A DNA stretch of 64,000 nt from a virus (lineage: Duplodnaviria > Caudoviricetes). The DNA lies in IMG/VR virus record IMGVR_UViG_3300028833_000058. The stretch is one strand, 5' to 3'. Numbering within the stretch: position 1 is the first letter of the stretch; the number at the start of each line of letters is the position of its first letter. The notes beneath the pieces were generated by a model, which had not been told where the DNA came from, did no database searches, and saw only the letters and a list, made by a program, of their open reading frames with translations. Made by a program: the position numbers and the translations under genes. Positions 47,127 to 63,739 of this stretch are shown here, one piece after another.

Positions 47127-48647
47127 TTAATTTTCTTCTTTTTTCCAAATAAATCTCATAGAGCCTGCGCCATAACACTCGAAAAGCTTTTTCTGGCTGA
47201 CTAATTTTTTAAATTCATGATACTTAGATGGACTTCTACTAAATCTTTTTGTACTATGTACTGTTACATAGAACTTATCTGGTCCAGTAAATCCATCTAA
47301 CTTAAAATTACATTGTTCATATCCTTGACCATTGAACAAATTCCAATCTGCATAGCAAAGTACAGATTGTGGGTCGTATTTCTTAACAAAATACGAAAAA
47401 AGTTTACTTGTACCCCCAACTACAGAGTTATTACTAGCTGGACACCCTCTAATCCATTCCCATTCAAACTGTTGTTTTTTAGATTTACCTATGTTTCTAG
47501 ATTTGCTGAATGAAGCTATTTGTACAAGATTGTTTTCATAGAACAAACCTAATTTCACAGATGCTTTATGATAACCTTGGATGTGATTTTTCTCACAAAA
47601 CGACTTATATTGGTCATTATCTATCTCTTTAACAACACATTTTCTTGCGTATATAGAATTTTTAGATAATATCCCTAATCTTGCCTTTAAAACATCTTTA
47701 ATTATATCTTGTTGATTTTTCCATTGGTCTTCCCAAATTTGAATCAATTGAATACCCTTTTGTTTGGCAATCATAGATTTGTTGTAATGATAATTTTTTG
47801 TAATTACACCCTCTTTTTTACCATTTAGACTGTGATAATATGACCCGTTATACTCTATTCCTATTCTTTTTTCTGGAACATATACGTCTATCTCAAATCT
47901 TGGTGTATTTTTAGAATTACCAGCACCTTCTATGAGTTTTTCTGTTTTAAGACCTAAACTTTCAACAAATTCACGTATTTCAACTTCAGCTTTAGATACA
48001 AACTGTACACCATTCTCTATATTTTCTTCATATACCTTATTAAGGAAATCTTTATCTTGGAATGGACTTATTTTTCCGTATTTTTCAAGATTCTTTTCTT
48101 TTCGTAATTCTTCTTTATGCTTTATCCCACACTCATAACAGCAAAATTTATGACTTGGTACTGTAAAAGTCTTTCCTTTTCCGTTTATTCCACCACTAGA
48201 CCATATTTTTTCATTTTGCGAATTCCAGTTACCTTGACCTTGTTCGTAGTAATATTCTTTACCACATGTCTCACATTTTCTAACTCCTGATTCTGGTAAA
48301 TTATATTTGTGTATCATGTGGCACTTATAAGAACAGAATTTACTACTTTTAGAATGAGCAGTACCTTGTATCTCAAATTCTTTATTACAAACGATACATT
48401 TTGCAATTTTAGTCGTTTGTTGTTTCTTTTCTATTATCTTATTTATTTCTTCTTTAGACTTTCTTTTCCAACCTTCTTTTATCTTTTTGTCATTATAAGT
48501 TTTACCGCATTGATAACAACAAAATCTATTTACGCTATACCCACTACCACGACCCTTGGATTGTGTGCCATCTTTTCTCCACAAACCAAGTTCAGGATTA
48601 GCGAAATATTCCTCGCCACAATTTTCACATTTGTATTGATTGTTCAT
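47127..48647 (-). CDS. Hef-like/PD-(D/E)XK homing endonuclease with N-terminal zinc fingers
   Basis: Three CxxC...(F)CxxxC zinc ribbons; SKAE...FEIDVYVPEKRIGIEYNGSYYH...IQIWEDQW nuclease core; IYARKC...NHIQG C-terminal domain. Confidence 0.75.
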   Translation of the reverse strand: MNNQYKCENCGEEYFANPELGLWRKDGTQSKGRGSGYSVNRFCCYQCGKTYNDKKIKEGWKRKSKEEINKIIEKKQQTTKIAKCIVCNKEFEIQGTAHSKSSKFCSYKCHMIHKYNLPESGVRKCETCGKEYYYEQGQGNWNSQNEKIWSSGGINGKGKTFTVPSHKFCCYECGIKHKEELRKEKNLEKYGKISPFQDKDFLNKVYEENIENGVQFVSKAEVEIREFVESLGLKTEKLIEGAGNSKNTPRFEIDVYVPEKRIGIEYNGSYYHSLNGKKEGVITKNYHYNKSMIAKQKGIQLIQIWEDQWKNQQDIIKDVLKARLGILSKNSIYARKCVVKEIDNDQYKSFCEKNHIQGYHKASVKLGLFYENNLVQIASFSKSRNIGKSKKQQFEWEWIRGCPASNNSVVGGTSKLFSYFVKKYDPQSVLCYADWNLFNGQGYEQCNFKLDGFTGPDKFYVTVHSTKRFSRSPSKYHEFKKLVSQKKLFECYGAGSMRFIWKKEEN

Positions 48648-55439: not shown

Positions 55440-57470
55440 ATGGAACAGTTACCTGCTGACATTGAAGAAAAGTTAGAAAGACTTCCAATAATACCTTTCG
55501 ATGGGTCACAAGAATTTCAAGAAGTTATTTTTTCTAATGATTTCAATGACATATTCGATTACTATTCTAAAAATTATATGCCTGATGTGGTAAAAAGTAA
55601 GCCAGAGCTATATCAGCGTGTATCTCTCTATTTGACACTCACTAATCAAGACACATCTATTGTTGAACAAACTGATGAAGTTTTATACAGAAGACCATGC
55701 CCAGACATTCATACGTTTTTGAATGATAATTTTTACATGGGTTATTCAAACGCAACTCTTTATCCGTTTTGGAAAGATGTTTTAGAAAATATCTTTAAAG
55801 ATGGTTCGCCGATTCGTAAGACTATTTTCGGCGGTTCAATTGGTATTGGCAAAAGCACGGTAGCCCGTAAAGCATTTTTATATGTGTTATATCGAGTTCT
55901 TTGTTTACGTTACCCAAGAGCAGCTTTTAATATTGACCAAGATTCTACAATTGCAAATGTTGTTATTGCTACTACTTTAAAACAGGTTTATGAGGTTAAC
56001 TTACTTCCTTTTGTTAAATTGATGGAAAGTATGCCGTGTTTTCAAAGAGTTATGTCTGTTAGGTCATTTGAAAATTTTAATTTAGATGACCCTCATTGTC
56101 CGATACCTTTTAATTTATCTAAGAGCGATGGTACTGTGTATTTTCCAGATAATATAATTTTAACAAGTGGAAGTAATGCACAACATTTCACTGGTATGAA
56201 CGTAATAAATTCTTTTTGTGATGAGATTAACGATTACGGTACTATTGAAAATACGATGGCTCTTTTGAATACATTAGATAATCGTTTTAGTTCACGTTTC
56301 CAAGGCTCAGATTTAGTGTTTCAGTCTATTGTATCATCAGCTCGTACAGAAAATAGTGCAATGGGTGAATACATTAGACATTTACCTAAAAATGACCCAT
56401 CTATATTGTTATTATCACCAAAATTATATGAAGTTAAACCAGACCCAGAGTTTAGAGGTGATGGTACAGTATTTTGGGTTCAAGTGGGTAATGGAAGTAT
56501 ACCTTCTAAAATTATTACAGACCCAGGTGAATTAAAAGCAATAGAAGATAAGACTTATGAGGTACCAGCAGGTTGTGTTTTAATTGACGTTCCTACTCCA
56601 TATCGTTCTAAATTTGAATTACAGCTTGACCAGTCTATACAAGATATCGCTGGTATGACTACAAGTGATAATAATAGTGTATTTAGAGATACAACACGTC
56701 TTGAAGAACCATTTTTAACTCCAGAGATGTATTTTGACGTAAGTATTCGTGAAGATGTAGATATATTATCTTTAATTGAACCATATAACTTGTTTGAAAA
56801 GACAATAAATGACCGTTGGCAATTTAAAAGAGCTCCTTTGGCAAATCGCTACATTCACGTTGATTTATCAGGTGGTGGTTCAGAAGGTCAATGTGATACT
56901 GGATTGTGTGTATTACATAAAGAGTGGAGAATGAATCCTAACACAAAAGAAAAAGAAGTTATATATGTTGTTGACTTACAGTTGTTTATAAACGCTAAAA
57001 ATAAAGTCGATGTTCATGCCATACAAAATTTCCTTATTAATTTAGTAACAGATAAAAATATTCCAGTTCATACAGTTTCTTTTGACCAATATAACTCTCT
57101 TATGATATTACAACAATTAGAAGCATCAGGTTGTTTTGTTAATGTAGAGAAGGTTTCAGTTGATATTAAATTAGAACCGTATACAAACGCTGCAAGTCTT
57201 ATGGAAAAAGGTCAAGTTAAAATAGGTAACGCTCCAAAACTTAAAAAAGAATTAGAAGCATTAGTCATTGATAAAGGTAAAGTAACACGAACAACAGAGT
57301 TAAAAGATGGTCCTGATAGTTTGGTAGGCGCAATCTGGGATGCCCAAATGAATTACAGTGACTTTCCTTTATATGAATTCCAAGACCCAAGAGAACAAAG
57401 TGTAGAAGATATAGATAATTACGAAGATTTAATTGATACATCTTCTGAGTTACTTTTAGACTTGAAATAA
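55440..57470 (+). CDS. terL: Terminase large subunit
   Basis: Walker A GGSIGIGKS, Walker B SFCDE, coupling motif VSS, nuclease IHVDLS...SFDQYNS...KDGPDSL. Confidence 0.88.
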   Translation: MEQLPADIEEKLERLPIIPFDGSQEFQEVIFSNDFNDIFDYYSKNYMPDVVKSKPELYQRVSLYLTLTNQDTSIVEQTDEVLYRRPCPDIHTFLNDNFYMGYSNATLYPFWKDVLENIFKDGSPIRKTIFGGSIGIGKSTVARKAFLYVLYRVLCLRYPRAAFNIDQDSTIANVVIATTLKQVYEVNLLPFVKLMESMPCFQRVMSVRSFENFNLDDPHCPIPFNLSKSDGTVYFPDNIILTSGSNAQHFTGMNVINSFCDEINDYGTIENTMALLNTLDNRFSSRFQGSDLVFQSIVSSARTENSAMGEYIRHLPKNDPSILLLSPKLYEVKPDPEFRGDGTVFWVQVGNGSIPSKIITDPGELKAIEDKTYEVPAGCVLIDVPTPYRSKFELQLDQSIQDIAGMTTSDNNSVFRDTTRLEEPFLTPEMYFDVSIREDVDILSLIEPYNLFEKTINDRWQFKRAPLANRYIHVDLSGGGSEGQCDTGLCVLHKEWRMNPNTKEKEVIYVVDLQLFINAKNKVDVHAIQNFLINLVTDKNIPVHTVSFDQYNSLMILQQLEASGCFVNVEKVSVDIKLEPYTNAASLMEKGQVKIGNAPKLKKELEALVIDKGKVTRTTELKDGPDSLVGAIWDAQMNYSDFPLYEFQDPREQSVEDIDNYEDLIDTSSELLLDLK

Positions 57471-57557: not shown

Positions 57558-58664
57558 ATGGCAAAAGTTAAAGAAGAGAAAACGCAGCTTGATAAAGATG
57601 TTGAAGCAGCTTTAGCTATACTAAATAAAACATTTGGTGAGGGAACTGCTTTAACCTTTGATAGCACCTATGTTCAAAACATTGATGTTGTGTCAACAGG
57701 TTCTTTAAATCTTGATGTTGCACTTGGAGTTGGTGGCTTGCCTATGGGTAGGTTCAGTTGTATTTATGGTGAACCATCATCAGGAAAAACAACCATTGCT
57801 CTTCAAGTTTGTGCAGAAGCTCAAAAGAAAGGGTATCTTGTTGCTTATTTAGATAGTGAACATGCTATGGATATGGGTTATGCCAGAGCTTTAGGTGTTG
57901 ATTTAAAACATTTACTATTCTGCCAACCAGATTCTGGTACTCAATGCTTTAGAATCGCTGAACAAATGTTAAAAACAACAAATGTTAAGGTAATAATTTT
58001 CGATTCTGTTACTACCATGATATCAGAAGCAGAAGAAAATAGTGAAATGGGTGCCAATAACATTGGTAGACAAGCTAAAATGATGTCTGATGGATTAAAA
58101 AGGCTTACTCCATTAGTTTCTAAGGCTGGTGCAATGTGTCTATTTATTTCACAGACACGTAAAAACATAGGCCAAATGTTTGGTGATATAGATACAATGA
58201 GTGGTGGTGATGCTTTAAAATTTTATACCACAATCATCATGAAAATTTGGAAAAAACAATCACCTATGACAGAAAAAATAAATGGTGAAGATATTGCAAC
58301 ATCAGTAGAAACTACAGTGAAAGTAACTAAAAATAAAGTTGCTCCTCCGTTTCGTGTAGCAAAATTTATTATCAGATATGGAAAAGGTGTATCTCAAACA
58401 GAAGAAATAGTAGATTTGGCTGTTAAATTCGGTTTAATAGAGAAATCTGGTGGATGGTTTAGATATAAGGATGAAAAAATTCAAGGGAAAGATAATGTTA
58501 TCAGTTGGTTAAAAAATAACGAATCTTTGCAAGAACATTTTAAAGAAACTATTATGAAATACATAACAGAGAAACAAAATGAAATGGGACTTGTTAGTAA
58601 CGAAGAAGAATCTCTTGAATATGACCCAGAAACAGGTGAAATTATAAAAACAAATGAAGATTAA
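57558..58664 (+). CDS. recA: RecA recombinase
   Basis: [58 protein letters not shown]. Confidence 0.97.
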
Positions 58665-58693: not shown

Positions 58694-58960
58694 ATGGCAA
58701 AAAATAAAGTTATTTCTGACCCAGCAAGCAGTCAAGTGGATAAAGAACGTTTGATTAGTCTTGTTGAAAGGATTGAACGTATAAATGAAGAAATTGCTGG
58801 TTTGACAGAAGACCGTAAAGACATCATGCTCGAAGCTAAATCAGCAGGTTTTGATACAAAGGCTATTAACCACGTTATCAAACTTCGTAAAAAGAACGCT
58901 TCTGAAAGAGAAATGGAAGAAGAATTGTTTACAACTTATGAACACGCTGTTGGTTTGTAA
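58694..58960 (+). CDS. gapR: GapR/DUF2312 family DNA-binding protein
   Basis: RLISLVERIERINEEI...DRKDIMLEAKSAGFDTKAINHVIKLRKK...E...YEHAVGL matches the DUF2312 consensus. Confidence 0.9.
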   Translation: MAKNKVISDPASSQVDKERLISLVERIERINEEIAGLTEDRKDIMLEAKSAGFDTKAINHVIKLRKKNASEREMEEELFTTYEHAVGL

Positions 58961-59013: not shown

Positions 59014-62000
59014 ATGAAAGGACTTTACATGAGTGAGAATGTGAGTTTTGGTAGAGATAAGCTTGACTGCTTTGCAGAATTTGTACCAAATTTAATTTTA
59101 ATAGCAGAAAAGCCGTTAGATGACGATAAAGAAGTCATCTTTGACTCTAAAGAGGGACAAAACTATTTAGATTTATGCTCACAAAGTAGATTTAAAGACA
59201 TTCTCACTCACGTTACATATATAGATGATTCAAAAGACATAAGTTTTACAAAAGATATTCTGTTTTCGATATTAGAATACTATAGACAGAAAAATTGTTT
59301 AGATTTAAATAATCTCATAGTTGGTTTTATTGGTGAAAAAGCTTTTAATGCTTTTTACGATGATTACGATTCTGTCGGTGTAGATGATAAAAATAGCGTT
59401 ATTCTAGATAAACAATCGAAATCACTTAGAGTAATTATGTCTAGTGTTAATAAAAACTATAGATTCAATGTACCGTATGTAATTTTACCAAATTTAGATG
59501 AAGATATAACAAGAGCAACTGGTGTGTTAAATCAAGCTTCTAATTTTAAAAAAGGTGTTAAAAACCCTTATTCTACGACTGGTGACGTAGTTAAAAAATT
59601 AGAATTTATGCTCGATATGTATCAAAAAGGTATATTGAAAAGTTTCTGCATAGAAGGAAAGATAGATAAAGAAACGAATAAATTCAAATATTGTAAATTT
59701 TACGATAAACAAAGTAATGAAACTTGCTTCTATAAAAAGAAAGATGAAATTTGCAAAGATGACATGGCAGAAACAGTTAAATTGTTTAGCAGTACATTGT
59801 TATCAGCTGTAACTACAATCCCAGTCTATGGCAAAAACATTGAAGAAGTGATAAATTGCTTTAATGACAACGTAAGAGATAAAATAAGGATTGCCACAGA
59901 AGAAGACATTAAAAGTGAAGATGTAATAGACCAAGATTTTAGAGTGTATGGAAGTGCTAATGGTGAACCATCAGCTTGGTATGACAAATGGTACAAAGAA
60001 GCGTTTTTACCAAAATTAAAAGACCAAATAAGGGAAAAAGATAAAATAAGGAGAAGAAATACACTGGTACGGGATGGATATTTAGATGAACATAAGTACG
60101 AGTGGGTATACGATATTGAGGTATTTAAAGAAGATTGGTTGTTAGTTGCTAAAACGCTAGATGGAGAAAATAAAGTAATTTGTTGGAATGACCCAGAGCA
60201 CTTGAAAGTTTGGATTGCAAATAAGATTCTAATTGGATTTAACAACGCAGCGTATGATAACAATGTGATTAAATATGCAATGGGTTATAATACTGCACTA
60301 TCTAATTATCAAAAATCGATTAGCAATAATGTCAAAAAACCATTAACAGTAAAAGAATATTCAGACCTTATAATCAATGAAGAAGGAGATAAAGAATTCA
60401 CTAGTGACCCAACAGTACCAAACTTTTTATCTTGGGATTTATCTTTCCATTTACCATTTGATGTGAGACGTAACTCTTTGAAAAAACTTACAATGTCAGT
60501 TTTAAATAGAAAGAATTATGATTCTTCTGTTCCTTTTGATATAAATAGAAAATTAACTAAATATGAAAGAGAAGAAGTTGAAAAGTACTGCGAAATGGAC
60601 GTGGACAACACTCTAGCTTTATTTCTGCCTGACCCAGAAGATGTTAAAGCTAAAGAGTTAGACCCAAAACATGAAATGAGAACGTTTGCGAGAGAATCTT
60701 ACGATATTCGTTGGAATATGATAGTAGAATATTTCATGACACCAAAAACTTTATCGAATAAATCTGCTTCTTTTGCTGGTAAAGTTTTATGTGGGGAAGA
60801 TGCTAAACCAGACTTACAAAATCAAACAAAATTAATAAATGGAAGAAAAGTTTATTATTCGATTCCAGAGCTTGCTGAGAAAGAGTTAGCAGGAACAGAA
60901 CTTTTAGAGTTTTATCATAAACACCAAGAAAATCCAAAATATATAACAGAAAAGTTTGAATGTTATCTTGGTCCTCATGATGACAGTCACTTATATCAAT
61001 TTGGATTCGGTGGATTACACCAAGCGTTAATAAACTTTGGTAGTACAAATTTAGTTAACATGGACGTTGCTTCACTGTATCCATCATTGTTGGTGCAATA
61101 TGGTTTAATGTCAAGGGGTGCTAAAGCCAATCCAGATTCTTATGAACAAGTGTACCACAAACGTCTTGAAGCTAAAAAGATGTCTAAGACAAGTCATGAG
61201 TTAAAATACAAGTTACTTAACGAAGGTCTTAAATTGATTTTAAATGGTGCCATTGGTGCTATGCTTTCGGATTACAATCCTCTATATGACACTTGGTCAA
61301 ATTCTACAATTTGTGTACACGGACAACTTTTAATTTTCATCTTAGCTAAACGTTTATTTGACGCTGGTTTCAATATTGTACAGACTAATACAGATGGTAT
61401 CATGATTGAAAAACGGCCTGATAAAGATTTTATGCCTATCGCTGAACAATGGATGAAAGAAACAAGACTTGTTCTTGAATTTGATGACATTAAAATTCTT
61501 CAACAAAACAATGTTAATAATTATTACTGTGAATTTACTAACGGTAAGATTAAGTCTAAAGGGTTTTATCTATCAAATGAAAAATTTGGTAAAGCTACTT
61601 CTAAAATCTTATGTAATCTTGTAACGAATCAACCACCTTTGGATGGAGTTGTTCCGAGAGATTTCGTTATTTTCAAACGTCATGGTTTAGGTGAAATATA
61701 CGATGGTAAAACAAGAGAAAAACTCGAAGGTCGTAGTTTGGCATTTGTTGTAGGTTATCCAAATGACCCTCGTACTCAAAGTTATTATAGTCGTAGTAGA
61801 AATGAAAGAGAAATAGTTAAAAAAGGTGAAGATGGTAAACCAATTTTAGACCAGTATGGTAAACAAGTAACAGAAAAAGTAAATACAGAAAGTAAAATAT
61901 CTGGTTTTACTGACCACATGCTCTTAGTCGATGATTTAAACACTTTAACAATGCAAGAAATTAATACAAGAGAATATATAAATTTTGCTAAAAACTTGCT

Positions 62001-62742
62001 CGGTAAAGAAGAAGATTTTGGTCCTTATTACACAGAAGGGTATTTGAAATCAGATGAACCTACACACATGCAAGCTCTAAATCCGTTTAAAGATAACACA
62101 GAACCATATCCAACAAAGTCTGGTATGATAAATCGTAATTTCTTATTTGAATGTGACTATTTAACAAAAGAAGAACAAGAAGAAATGATAAAAGGATTTG
62201 AGGATAAGACATATAGAATAGTATGGTCTGGTCATAGAAGTTATCATATCGTAGTTAGATTAGATAAACCTGTTACATCTGTTAAATACAAGAGAGTATG
62301 GGAACAATTAGCACATATGTTGAAAATAATTGGTGCAGATGAAATGTGTAATCAACCGTCAAGATATACAAGGGTTCCAGACCAGATAAATCCAAAGACA
62401 GGTGAAATGCAAACATTATATAGTGAAAAGAAATATGTATTTAACACAGATGAGATACTTGAAAATCTCCAACCTTTAAAAAGTGATAAACCTGTTAAGC
62501 CTACCACGTTCAAAGGGGAGCCAACGAGGGAAGCTTTAGAAAAACACATAGCTAAACAAGATTGGAGTGAAGGTAACAGATTTGTAGCTTGTCAGAAGTT
62601 AAGCCCAGTTCTGATTTCTTTGGTTAGTCTCGAAGAATTATATGAGATGATACCTTGTAAGTTAGATAAAGACCATAAATATGTAATAAGAAGTAAGAGA
62701 AGAGCTTATGAAAAAATGAAAGCAGAAGAAGAAAGTTATTAA
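59014..62742 (+). CDS. Family B DNA polymerase with extra N-terminal (UDG-like) and C-terminal (primase-like) domains
   Basis: Exo I YDIEVF, Exo II GFNNAAYD, Exo III YCEMDV; polymerase motifs A DVASLYPS, B KLILNGAIG, C QTNTDGI. The start may be ATG 59029. Confidence 0.9.
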   Translation: MKGLYMSENVSFGRDKLDCFAEFVPNLILIAEKPLDDDKEVIFDSKEGQNYLDLCSQSRFKDILTHVTYIDDSKDISFTKDILFSILEYYRQKNCLDLNNLIVGFIGEKAFNAFYDDYDSVGVDDKNSVILDKQSKSLRVIMSSVNKNYRFNVPYVILPNLDEDITRATGVLNQASNFKKGVKNPYSTTGDVVKKLEFMLDMYQKGILKSFCIEGKIDKETNKFKYCKFYDKQSNETCFYKKKDEICKDDMAETVKLFSSTLLSAVTTIPVYGKNIEEVINCFNDNVRDKIRIATEEDIKSEDVIDQDFRVYGSANGEPSAWYDKWYKEAFLPKLKDQIREKDKIRRRNTLVRDGYLDEHKYEWVYDIEVFKEDWLLVAKTLDGENKVICWNDPEHLKVWIANKILIGFNNAAYDNNVIKYAMGYNTALSNYQKSISNNVKKPLTVKEYSDLIINEEGDKEFTSDPTVPNFLSWDLSFHLPFDVRRNSLKKLTMSVLNRKNYDSSVPFDINRKLTKYEREEVEKYCEMDVDNTLALFLPDPEDVKAKELDPKHEMRTFARESYDIRWNMIVEYFMTPKTLSNKSASFAGKVLCGEDAKPDLQNQTKLINGRKVYYSIPELAEKELAGTELLEFYHKHQENPKYITEKFECYLGPHDDSHLYQFGFGGLHQALINFGSTNLVNMDVASLYPSLLVQYGLMSRGAKANPDSYEQVYHKRLEAKKMSKTSHELKYKLLNEGLKLILNGAIGAMLSDYNPLYDTWSNSTICVHGQLLIFILAKRLFDAGFNIVQTNTDGIMIEKRPDKDFMPIAEQWMKETRLVLEFDDIKILQQNNVNNYYCEFTNGKIKSKGFYLSNEKFGKATSKILCNLVTNQPPLDGVVPRDFVIFKRHGLGEIYDGKTREKLEGRSLAFVVGYPNDPRTQSYYSRSRNEREIVKKGEDGKPILDQYGKQVTEKVNTESKISGFTDHMLLVDDLNTLTMQEINTREYINFAKNLLGKEEDFGPYYTEGYLKSDEPTHMQALNPFKDNTEPYPTKSGMINRNFLFECDYLTKEEQEEMIKGFEDKTYRIVWSGHRSYHIVVRLDKPVTSVKYKRVWEQLAHMLKIIGADEMCNQPSRYTRVPDQINPKTGEMQTLYSEKKYVFNTDEILENLQPLKSDKPVKPTTFKGEPTREALEKHIAKQDWSEGNRFVACQKLSPVLISLVSLEELYEMIPCKLDKDHKYVIRSKRRAYEKMKAEEESY

Positions 62743-62814: not shown

Positions 62815-63075
62815 ATGTTTTGGTTTGACGATGCAAAAGAAGGTATAGAGATAAGTTTCGAAACAAGAGGTGTTGATGACGAAACTGTTGAATTCATATG
62901 GAATCAATTATCTCCAGAAAAGATTAAGAAGTTAGTAGAAAAAACAGGACAAAATCTTGTTGTTTATGACAAAAACGGTAAACAAGTGGCTGTTTATATA
63001 AAATATAACGAAACTAAACAGTTACACAAGAAGGTTTATACAGTTAGTTGTATGAAAAATATAAATGAGGGATAA
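62815..63075 (+). CDS. Hypothetical protein
   Basis: 86-aa ORF with GAGGA RBS. Confidence 0.65.
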   Translation: MFWFDDAKEGIEISFETRGVDDETVEFIWNQLSPEKIKKLVEKTGQNLVVYDKNGKQVAVYIKYNETKQLHKKVYTVSCMKNINEG

Positions 63076-63079
63076 AAAG

Positions 63080-63739
63080 ATGATTTTGAATATACAGTAT
63101 TTAGACAATTGGGAAAAACATGGTGAAGCTATCGATGGAGATAATCCTTGGGATGATGCTTATAGAGGTAAACATGTTTCATACAGATGCGGTGAAGAAT
63201 ATTCTTGGTGTAATCGTACATATTTTCACCCATTCTTACAAACAGAAGTGTTACCAATTTATGATAATGAAACTAAACAACAAATTGGTTGGATGGACGA
63301 AGATGATGGTCAAGTTTACAAATTACCATGGCTCATTGAATCAACAGAAGGTAATTCTGGTTATGATTTAAGAGCTGCAATTTCGGAACCAATTGTCATT
63401 AAACCGAATACAAGAGCTTTAATCCCAAATGGTATTAAGATTTCGTTTGGTGAAGGTTTTGATTCAAATGTTGAATTTCAAATTAGATGTCGTTCTGGTC
63501 TTGCTTATAAAAAAGGTATCATGGTAGTCAATGGTATTGGAACAATTGATTATAATTATCGTGGTGAACTAGGAACAATTCTTTATAACTCAGGAACAGA
63601 AGATTTTGTTGTAAACCGTGGTGATAGAGTCAGTCAAGGTGTTATATGTCCTATTTATAAACCAGAAATCGAGATTGTTGATTGGCTAGACACAACAGAT
63701 AGGGGAACTGGTGGTTTTGGTTCTTCGGGAGTTAAATAA
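63080..63739 (+). CDS. dut: Trimeric dUTPase with an N-terminal insertion
   Basis: SGYDL, RSGLA, GTIDYNYRGE, GDRVSQ and RGTGGFGSSG motifs; start placed at ATG 63080 (GAGG RBS). Confidence 0.95.
   Translation: MILNIQYLDNWEKHGEAIDGDNPWDDAYRGKHVSYRCGEEYSWCNRTYFHPFLQTEVLPIYDNETKQQIGWMDEDDGQVYKLPWLIESTEGNSGYDLRAAISEPIVIKPNTRALIPNGIKISFGEGFDSNVEFQIRCRSGLAYKKGIMVVNGIGTIDYNYRGELGTILYNSGTEDFVVNRGDRVSQGVICPIYKPEIEIVDWLDTTDRGTGGFGSSGVK

Follow-up and report, generated by a model that had tools for sequence, protein, structure and literature searches.

A putative single-chain primase-polymerase with a decayed UDG-like front module in an uncultured jumbo phage

Can a single phage polypeptide both prime and replicate DNA? 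The question is raised by one long open reading frame (ORF) in the window, the whole 64,000-nucleotide stretch of viral DNA analysed here, in which an earlier note made from the sequence alone had seen a family B DNA polymerase (PolB) joined to a uracil-DNA glycosylase (UDG)-like N-terminus and a primase-like C-terminus. All motif strings quoted in that note were found in the translation. The second ATG (position 59029, Met6) is probably the true start, because an AAAGGA ribosome-binding site lies 6 nt upstream and the homologues begin there. These homologues, all metagenomic and 52–95% identical to the replicase, share an identical domain architecture, and the motif conservation combined with confident terminal models is far beyond chance. 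It is barely credible that the ORF is an artefact in which two or three neighbouring genes were fused by a sequencing or assembly error: its unusual length is the one point in favour of this, whereas more than 120 independent homologues from several sources and four IMG/VR loci show equal length and colinear domains, and P0131, an 838-aa protein of a smaller uncultured phage, likewise carries PolB and primase in a single frame. An assembly artefact was rejected on the colinearity of all three.

Pfam searches with the whole replicase and with each terminus matched nothing meaningful, NCBIfam models gave no match, and a phmmer search of the whole replicase against the PDB returned zero matches. 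As neither Pfam nor NCBIfam recognises any part of the replicase, the domains were assigned from PHROG matches, custom profiles and structure prediction (Table 1). AlphaFold models of both terminal regions have pLDDT values of 94 and 88, and their closest solved structures are archaeo-eukaryotic primases (AEPs) for the C-terminal and UDGs for the N-terminal model. A tblastn search of the two regions against 50,697 GenBank phage records found no match, and the modules are therefore absent at BLAST level from the deposited phages of that collection. Clustered at 90% identity, the family numbers more than 120 groups, found on contigs of up to 250 kb, and is wholly unannotated, its NCBI homologue being labelled 'hypothetical protein'.

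Table 1. Features of the replicase gene and its neighbours (positions in the window)
Feature	Position	Strand	Basis or remark
recA-family recombinase	57558..58664	+	Pfam RecA, E 1.5e-83; upstream, replication/recombination block
GapR-like DNA-binding protein	58694..58960	+	Pfam GapR_DNA-bd, E 6.5e-24; immediately upstream of replicase
Whole replicase ORF	59014..62742	+	1242 aa; frame open throughout; >120 full-length homologues of ~1190–1280 aa
UDG-superfamily fold, residues 8–181	59035..59556	+	Predicted; closest to family 4, catalytic motifs lost
Truncated DEDD/PolA-type 3'-5' exonuclease-like fold, residues 185–300	59566..59913	+	Predicted; DxE, Exo II and Exo III residues absent
Connector helices, residues 317–355	59962..60078	+	Invariant G317..S320.W322-Y323..W326 (alignment A2)
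PolB 3'-5' proofreading exonuclease, residues 360–545	60091..60648	+	Exo I–III invariant; phrog_1252 match
PolB polymerase domain, residues 546–999	60649..62010	+	Motifs A–C; PDB PolB profile matches
AEP (archaeo-eukaryotic primase/PrimPol) catalytic domain, residues 1000–1153	62011..62472	+	Motifs I–III
Flexible linker, residues 1154–1171	62473..62526	+	pLDDT 71–76 over model residues 151–170
Helix bundle (RepB'/PriCT-like), residues 1172–1242	62527..62739	+	Conserved G1187-x-R1189 (alignment A1)
dUTPase, downstream neighbour	63065..63739	+	Pfam dUTPase, E 8.5e-21, residues 92–222; NCBIfam dut

The core, read as PolB in the earlier note, is by its motifs a family B polymerase with all its parts, proofreading included, and belongs to the divergent HelPrimPolB/crAss-like kind. 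The DNA polymerase family phrog_1252 matches residues 360–997 (E 4e-88), and the Exo I (D367/E369), Exo II (N410..Y414-D415) and Exo III (Y525..D529) residues are invariant in 120/120 homologues. Pol motif A (D684-VASLYPS) matches DxxSLYPS exactly, motif B reads K740-LILN744-GAIG748 (consensus KxxxNSxYG), and motif C, N792-T-D794-G, is a single-Asp variant of DTD. The Pol motif residues checked there, most of the set, are likewise invariant in 120/120 homologues, the invariance of K740 and G748 being seen in the 25-sequence core alignment A3 only. The A3 profile matched Sulfolobus solfataricus PolB1 (1s5j, E 1.4e-5) and Escherichia coli Pol II (3k57, E 1.5e-4), spanning motifs A–C in both, and the Pfam DNA_pol_B models found no match in the replicase. 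A protein-primed PolB was set aside, the profile matches being to RNA/DNA-primed PolBs and a primase being attached. In the predicted model, the connector preceding the core contains helices 321–339 and 342–354.

The C-terminal region folds in prediction as an AEP catalytic domain. FLFECD (residues 1043–1048, nt 62140–62157), IVWSGHRSYHIVV (residues 1069–1081, nt 62218–62256) and ADEMCNQPSRYTRVP (residues 1108–1122, nt 62335–62379) hold AEP motifs I (E1046-x-D1048), II (S1072-G..S1076-x-H1078) and III (D1109, then R1120-x-P1122), respectively. E1046, D1048, S1072, G1073, H1078 and D1109 are invariant across the 120 full-length homologues; in alignment A1, whose 81 sequences take in stand-alone relatives of ~25% identity, E1046, D1048 and H1078 remain invariant and S1072, G1073 and D1109 are ≥90% conserved. 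R1120 is also invariant and is a candidate for the extra Arg (motif IV) of PrimPol-PV1. The best structural and profile matches were the S-2L PrimPol, an All3500-like member (PMC8065100), RepB' and HP0184. The string WSEGNRF (residues 1184–1190) falls within the terminal helix bundle, which the Pfam PriCT models (PriCT_1/2) did not match; full-length RepB' (3h20) aligned over 217 aa across residues 1–243 of the C-terminal model. The AEP/Prim-Pol domain and the PriCT-resembling helix proposed in the earlier note thus both stand, the former on conserved motifs and on a structure comparison that places the predicted model nearest AEP primases, the latter as a PriCT/RepB'-type bundle following the AEP. 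The C-terminal AEP is probably of PrimPol-PV1 type and predicted to be catalytically intact. A representative library yielded 342 AEP matches, and those scanned included DUF5906 SF3 helicase fusions and matches to a PHROG 'DNA primase' family.

Gene order around the replicase is consistent with that in one relative (L002), where ORFs of matching size and position are unannotated, and the downstream dUTPase carries an N-terminal extension of ~90 aa. A search for another primase, a check suggested in the earlier note, covered two near-complete related IMG/VR genomes of 237 kb (98% completeness) and 227 kb (95%), and none was detected: the only AEP match lies within the replicase gene, and both genomes lack Pfam matches to DnaG Toprim_2, DNAG_N, the DnaG Zn ribbon and Prim-Pol, as well as a FEN-type 5'-3' exonuclease, a DUF5906 helicase and Pfam UDG. 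Both encode a DnaB helicase, RNase H, RecA, dUTPase and a thymidylate-synthase-family protein. Given the lack of DnaG and of a second AEP in these two relatives, the fused AEP is probably the only primase of the phage. The absence of DnaG concerns the relatives and the Pfam models used, and a host DnaG could serve too.

We consider it likely that the ORF product is a single-chain primase-polymerase with which an uncultured jumbo myophage replicates its DNA. Because PolB and primase are joined in one protein, it can probably start and extend DNA alone, and a self-priming replicase is the mechanism with the most support, no other primase having been detected in the two related genomes. The flexible linker would tether the AEP and its helix-bundle partner to the PolB C-terminus; a DnaB-type phage helicase would expose single-stranded template, on which AEP and bundle may lay down a short de novo primer. 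Its end would then pass, within the one chain, to the active site of PolB and be extended in a processive and proofread manner, after which phage RNase H would remove the primers. In function the replicase would thereby resemble eukaryotic Pol alpha-primase, condensed into one chain. The folds, the conserved motifs, the shared architecture and the lack of a second detectable primase are what the computational analysis shows; priming activity, primer transfer in cis and the role of the front module are predictions.

AEPs of this supergroup can be full polymerases (S-2L) or origin-specific primases (RepB'), so that AEP and PolB may divide the labour in more than one way. It is conceivable, albeit unlikely, that the AEP is a specialised initiator rather than a general lagging-strand primase, acting either as a RepB'-like maker of origin-specific primers or as a repriming/translesion PrimPol that restarts a stalled PolB, with host DnaG priming via the phage DnaB-type helicase. 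The nearest structures do include RepB', which primes at specific ssi sites only, along with PrimPols and LigD/Prim-PolC repair enzymes, and DnaB-type helicases are the kind usually paired with DnaG (PMC4889955). However, the two ~230-kb genomes lack DnaG while retaining the rest of the replication genes listed above, 98% of phages that encode a DNA polymerase also encode a primase (PMC4889955), and the AEP never varies and is found joined to the replicase in every case, all of which argue against a specialised initiator.

The function of the front of the protein is a separate matter. The strings LILIAEKP (residues 27–34), HVTYI (residues 66–70) and IVGFIGEKAFNAF (residues 102–114) had been read as a degenerate family-4 UDG fold, and the predicted structure supports this, showing a UDG alpha/beta fold that is nearest to UDGs, closest to family 4, and degenerate in its catalytic motifs. 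With motif positions assigned from strand ends in the predicted model, motif A reads AEKPL instead of GE[A/G]PG, and motif B reads ILP (I-L158-P159) instead of HPS and has no His. At the sequence level the N-terminal profile matched nothing in the PDB, UDGs included; Pfam models, likewise with UDG included, found nothing meaningful in 41 N-terminal homologues, and when N-terminal modules standing alone or in other fusions were sought by a profile word-search, a single fragment of the same replicase family was all that came up.

The further suggestion of the note, that the replicase is possibly uracil-sensing, fares less well. A functional UDG-like domain, acting as a base sensor or glycosylase that reads template uracil or modified pyrimidine ahead of the polymerase, might be likened to SP15/phiLo-type UDG-PolAs or to the uracil pocket of archaeal PolBs, and active UDG-PolA fusions exist (PMC13697223). 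Several pocket-like residues are conserved (F43 in 114/120 homologues, S45 and T65 in 120/120, H66 in 116/120, and G48), the genes just downstream of the replicase are a dUTPase and a thymidylate-synthase-family gene, and related genomes revealed no separate Pfam UDG. We nevertheless regard this reading as improbable: the motif A acid at residue 32 varies among the 120 homologues (E 46, L 36, D 20, K 11), an invariant Leu158 takes the place of the motif B His, His occupies the position of the uracil-reading Asn, no Cys that could bind an Fe-S cluster is invariant or near-invariant within residues 1–181 of alignment A2, and sequence-level matches to Pfam or PDB UDGs are lacking. This is the pattern of the inactive UDG of N4-like PolAs (PMC10201439).

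The earlier note overlooked a second decayed domain, an exonuclease-like region at residues 185–300. In a wide structure search, 11 of the 12 entries covering this region alone were DEDDy/PolA-type exonucleases, the exception being SRP14, and no PolB N-terminal domain was among them. The DEDD residues are absent: the first strand carries no DxE, position 213 being occupied by E, N or D in different homologues, and neither Exo II nor Exo III is conserved. D231, Y240 and D250 are the sole near-invariant residues of the region. In structure comparison the phiLo PolA aligns across both the UDG-like and the exonuclease-like domain, and the nearest Atlas models are ~300-aa viral proteins with UDG and DNA_pol_A_exo1. 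On the predicted models, residues 1–300 probably form a module in which a UDG and a PolA-type exonuclease have both decayed, and catalysis by either half appears unlikely from the residues present. The front module most likely acts in DNA binding, processivity or scaffolding, a role of the kind that has been suggested for N4-like PolAs with their inactive UDG and demonstrated for vaccinia D4.

Only structure connects the module with UDG-PolAs, since hhalign of the N-terminal profile against the phage N4 UDG-PolA gp39 gave a probability of 0.2%. This null result is compatible with a different origin, in which the module is no PolA remnant: a decayed UDG would come from an older UDG-PolB fusion, and residues 185–300 would do no more than resemble an RNase H-like exonuclease, being either a small, unrelated alpha/beta domain or a PolB N-terminal domain that has become elaborated. 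As a lead only, Viral Atlas clusters of 1030–1073 aa pair Pfam DNA_pol_B with Pfam UDG. We find such an origin doubtful, as the structural matches to residues 185–300 fall almost entirely into one exonuclease family that excludes PolB N-terminal domains, as the UDG-then-exonuclease order is that of the UDG-PolAs, with phiLo PolA aligning over both domains, and as the nearest Atlas models combine UDG with DNA_pol_A_exo1. Returning to the PolA-type module, we tentatively posit that the protein is a self-sufficient, single-chain 'mini Pol alpha-primase' with proofreading that also records an in-place polymerase swap. Equally tentatively, a P0131-type PolB-AEP cassette may have displaced the PolA domain of an ancestral UDG-exo-PolA, with the dead UDG and exonuclease kept as a structural or processivity platform. 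If true, nature would here have replaced PolA by PolB within a single gene, and the result would be a compact enzyme able to prime and copy DNA with no accessory primase.

Uniting primase, replicative polymerase and proofreading in one polypeptide would represent replisome economy in a giant phage, and would be the equivalent, in a bacterial virus, of the way in which eukaryotic Pol alpha-primase passes primers from AEP to PolB. Recognising the family fills in the 'missing primase' of these genomes. One recombinant protein could suffice for studying priming and extension, and a self-priming proofreading polymerase could suit primer-free isothermal amplification. Set beside the 838-aa PolB-AEP relatives with their simpler build, the decayed UDG/exonuclease front makes it possible to test how replicases evolve by exchange of modules between the family A and family B systems.

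Among known systems, UDG-PolA fusions occur in N4-like phages (inactive UDG), SPO1, and SP15/phiLo/YerA41 (active UDG) (PMC10201439; PMC13697223; PDB 9qhs). They begin with a UDG fold of the family-4 type and continue with a PolA-type 3'-5' exonuclease fold, an order that the replicase probably shares, and the N4-like members have likewise lost the UDG catalytic residues. In the replicase, by contrast, the polymerase is of family B rather than A, sequence similarity to N4 gp39 is undetectable by hhalign, and the exonuclease-like domain is truncated and has no active-site residues because PolB supplies its own exonuclease. Eukaryotic Pol alpha-primase and the vaccinia E9-A20-D4 holoenzyme (PDB 8q3r) are multi-subunit, whereas the replicase is one chain; Pol alpha has no proofreading, which the replicase PolB keeps, and vaccinia D4 is an active glycosylase, unlike the degenerate UDG-like domain. 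Of the nearest AEPs, the cyanophage S-2L PrimPol (PDB 6zp9; All3500-like) is a VirE-type helicase fusion thought to be the sole polymerase of that phage, and RSF1010 RepB' (PDB 3h20/3h25) is a stand-alone plasmid primase of the PrimPol-PV1 supergroup (PMC8065100; PMC5862659); unlike the replicase AEP, neither is joined to a family B polymerase.

Outside the jumbo-phage family, the replicase has its closest natural relatives in the P0131-type proteins, an independent lineage in which PolB and a C-terminal AEP are colinear with residues 356–1135 (27% identity, E 8e-68). P0131 is without the N-terminal ~350-residue module, and a DUF5906 SF3-type helicase is encoded two genes upstream of it, whereas replicase relatives have a DnaB helicase. 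The earlier note had held that primases are normally separate genes, which needs qualifying, as primase-PolB fusions were already described in the HelPrimPolB group, for example Lactococcus phage 1706 gp55, which likewise joins an AEP and a divergent PolB in one polypeptide (PMC4889955; PMC7544198). The two PolB cores are 24% identical from Exo I to motif C (E 1e-07) and share YDIEVF and GFNNxxYD exonuclease motifs and a single-Asp motif C (xTD; VKTDS in gp55), as reported in HelPrimPolB/crAss-like groups (PMC7544198). The N-terminal SF3 helicase/PrimPol that marks HelPrimPolBs has no equivalent here, there being no helicase domain in the replicase and no DUF5906 in the related genomes. In gp55 the order is SF3 helicase, AEP, PolB, with an AEP of DxD/SGGGxH type; in the replicase a UDG-like and exonuclease-like module comes first, and the AEP is C-terminal, of the ExD/SGxxSxH and probably PrimPol-PV1 type, and has its own helix bundle. 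The PolB-primase fusion as such was thus known before, and what is new here is a different domain order and a different AEP.

The window, which comes from a phage genome rich in AT (GC about 32%) and includes tail, baseplate and endolysin genes, carries at 59014-62742 on the + strand an open ORF encoding 1242 residues, in which every string quoted in the earlier note was found in place. A word-indexed homologue search of 5.8 billion proteins gave 131 matches, and nearly all of the 120 listed are full-length (about 1190-1280 aa, 52-95% identity), on contigs of up to 250 kb. The polymerase occurs at four loci in IMG/VR, two of them within genomes that are nearly complete (227 and 237 kb). These loci and the homologues of equal length rule out an artefact and show that the long ORF is a gene conserved within a lineage of jumbo phages. 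The single named database homologue is a 'hypothetical protein [Bacilli bacterium]'. Two in-frame ATGs lie at the start (59014-59031). An AAAGGA ribosome-binding site stands 6 nt before the second (59029, Met6), where most homologues begin, so that this ATG is likely the true start and the protein probably has 1237 rather than 1242 aa.

The polymerase core has no match in Pfam or NCBIfam, and residues 360-997 match PHROG family 1252 (DNA polymerase; E 4e-88). A profile of the core region matched two PolBs across motifs A-C, PolB1 of S. solfataricus (E 1.4e-5) and Pol II of E. coli (E 1.5e-4). None of the 120 homologues deviates at the exonuclease and polymerase active sites of PolB, namely Exo I (D367, E369), Exo II (N410, Y414, D415), Exo III (Y525, D529), motif A (D684-VASLYPS) and a motif C with a single Asp (N792-T-D794); motif B (K740..N744..G748) is invariant in a 25-sequence core alignment, with N744 also checked across all 120. 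Lactococcus phage 1706 gp55 has a similar single-Asp motif C and exonuclease motifs, and its PolB core aligns with that of the window polymerase at 24% identity. Combined with a crAss-like Bohxovirus match, this puts the core close to two groups of Kazlauskas et al. 2020 (PMC7544198), HelPrimPolB and crAss-like.

Domains of the polymerase outside the PolB core (residues numbered over 1242 aa)
Feature	Residues	Basis
UDG fold	8-181	predicted model
Exonuclease-like fold	185-300	predicted model, middling scores, about half-size domain
AEP core	1000-1153	motif conservation and model
Flexible linker	1154-1171	pLDDT dip
Helix bundle	1172-1242	model alignment with RepB', conserved GxR

Searched exhaustively with HMMER against 1.84 billion representatives, residues 1000-1242 gave 342 matches. 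Among the 150 listed, most are stand-alone proteins of 250-300 aa and some have 700-840 aa, some of the latter carrying a DUF5906 SF3-helicase ATPase; most relatives scanned match PHROG 2597 'DNA primase'. In an 81-sequence alignment of the region, E1046, D1048, Q1055, S1076, H1078 and R1120 are invariant and S1072, G1073, D1109 and P1122 nearly so, and these residues are motifs I, II and III of archaeo-eukaryotic primases (AEPs). The one informative match of the alignment profile to PDB sequences, the AEP domain of cyanophage S-2L PrimPol (6zp9, E 3.3e-5), lines up all three motifs. An AlphaFold model of the module (pLDDT 94) retrieved 6zp9 by Foldseek (E 1e-6), followed by RepB', CAPP, LigD-Pol, PriS and PrimPol; all 50 structure matches listed are AEPs, and full-length RepB' aligns over 217 aa across model residues 1-243. 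The three catalytic motifs proposed in the earlier note are thereby confirmed. [quoted passage not shown]

A further primase was sought in the two near-complete relatives, standing in for the phage of the window. The AEP profile found exactly one AEP in them, within the orthologous polymerase gene, and DnaG Toprim_2, DNAG_N, DnaG zinc ribbon and Pfam Prim-Pol were absent from both, with positive controls working; FEN, DUF5906 and Pfam UDG were absent too, while a DnaB-family helicase and RNase H are encoded. Since 98% of polymerase-encoding phages also encode a primase (PMC4889955) and no other is detectable in these relatives, the fused AEP is the obvious candidate for the phage primase. Alternatively, it could be a specialised initiator or repriming enzyme. 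As the candidate primase, the AEP with its helix bundle would prime ssDNA behind the DnaB helicase and hand the primers in cis to PolB, as happens between the subunits of Pol alpha-primase, and RNase H would remove them.

Locally the genes run recA, GapR-like, polymerase, small ORF, dUTPase. In a comparison by size and position, the orthologous polymerase at one relative locus has neighbouring ORFs of like size and order, including a similar-sized ORF in the position of the GapR-like gene (58694-58960, +; Pfam GapR_DNA-bd, E 6.5e-24). The relatives also have a thymidylate-synthase-family gene some 3 kb downstream. Directly upstream of recA in this replication block is a 676-aa ORF (55440-57470, +) with no match in Pfam, PHROGs or NCBIfam, and the dUTPase (63065-63739, +) has an N-terminal extension of about 90 residues. 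A 506-aa HNH/homing-endonuclease-like ORF (47127-48647, -; phrog_3339, E 1e-79) lies inside the structural-gene block.

The N-terminal region was recognised by none of the sequence methods used (Pfam, including N-terminal homologues; profile against PDB; profile word-search), and its model (pLDDT 88) has two domains. The degenerate UDG fold suggested earlier is present in the model, and its catalytic signature appears lost: the motif A position reads AEKPL, residue 32 among 120 homologues is E (46), L (36), D (20) or K (11), the motif B His position is an invariant Leu158, and the homologue alignment of the domain has no conserved Cys for an Fe-S cluster. The suggested uracil function is not supported, glycosylase activity being unlikely. 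A still-functional base sensor is conceivable, as pocket-like F43, S45, T65 and H66 persist and may allow residual base binding; the lost catalytic residues and missing cluster cysteines speak against it. The exonuclease-like domain, previously overlooked, lacks the DxE, Exo II and Exo III residues in the homologue alignment. The phiLo UDG-PolA structure (9qhs) aligns over both domains (model residues 14-305), and among ESM-Atlas models the closest are UDG-PolAs and viral proteins of some 300 aa that combine Pfam UDG with DNA_pol_A_exo1. On these grounds we hold, with moderate confidence, that the front 300 residues descend from the UDG-exo part at the front of a family A phage polymerase and have decayed; a non-PolA origin would fit the absence of any sequence signal in hhalign against N4 gp39, but these structural neighbours speak against it. 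A decayed front end would probably serve in DNA binding, processivity or protein docking, with parallels in the inactive UDG of N4-like PolAs (PMC10201439) and vaccinia D4 with E9 PolB (PMC13697223). Two long helices (59962-60078, residues 317-355) connect the exo-like domain with the PolB exonuclease; at their start, after a low-confidence loop of the model, is an invariant G..S.WY..W.

A simpler relative is P0131 (838 aa; 10001-12517 on L011, a contig of about 32 kb from a smaller phage). Its residues 33-617 match phrog_1252 and residues 635-734 a primase PHROG, and its gene comes two genes after that for a DUF5906 helicase. P0131 is colinear with window polymerase residues 356-1135 (27% identity, E 8e-68) and, unlike that protein, lacks the N-terminal module. 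Beyond the jumbo family there are thus phages with the PolB plus C-terminal AEP cassette, and the front module is an addition or retention particular to the jumbo lineage. The neighbours of P0131 (7850-9661 and 14629-18183) are the DUF5906 helicase and a set of nucleotide-metabolism genes (HD, phosphoribosyltransferase, ThyX, a weak TAGT match and a YfbR-like nucleotidase), which might point to modified thymidine.

UDG fusions have been described for family A polymerases (PMC10201439; PMC13697223). In ESM Atlas viral clusters of 1030-1073 aa, more than 90% of the members carry Pfam DNA_pol_B, DNA_pol_B_exo1 and UDG; this feature search suggests, as a lead only, that phage metagenomes contain viral PolBs fused to a UDG that Pfam recognises, and our literature search found no discussion of such fusions. 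Nor did it find the order UDG-like, exo-like, PolB, AEP and helix bundle described. The joining of PolB to a primase is itself known from the HelPrimPolB group, described in 2016 and 2020 (PMC4889955; PMC7544198) and exemplified by phage 1706 gp55, an SF3 helicase-PrimPol-PolB which differs from the window polymerase in its domain order, its helicase and its type of AEP.
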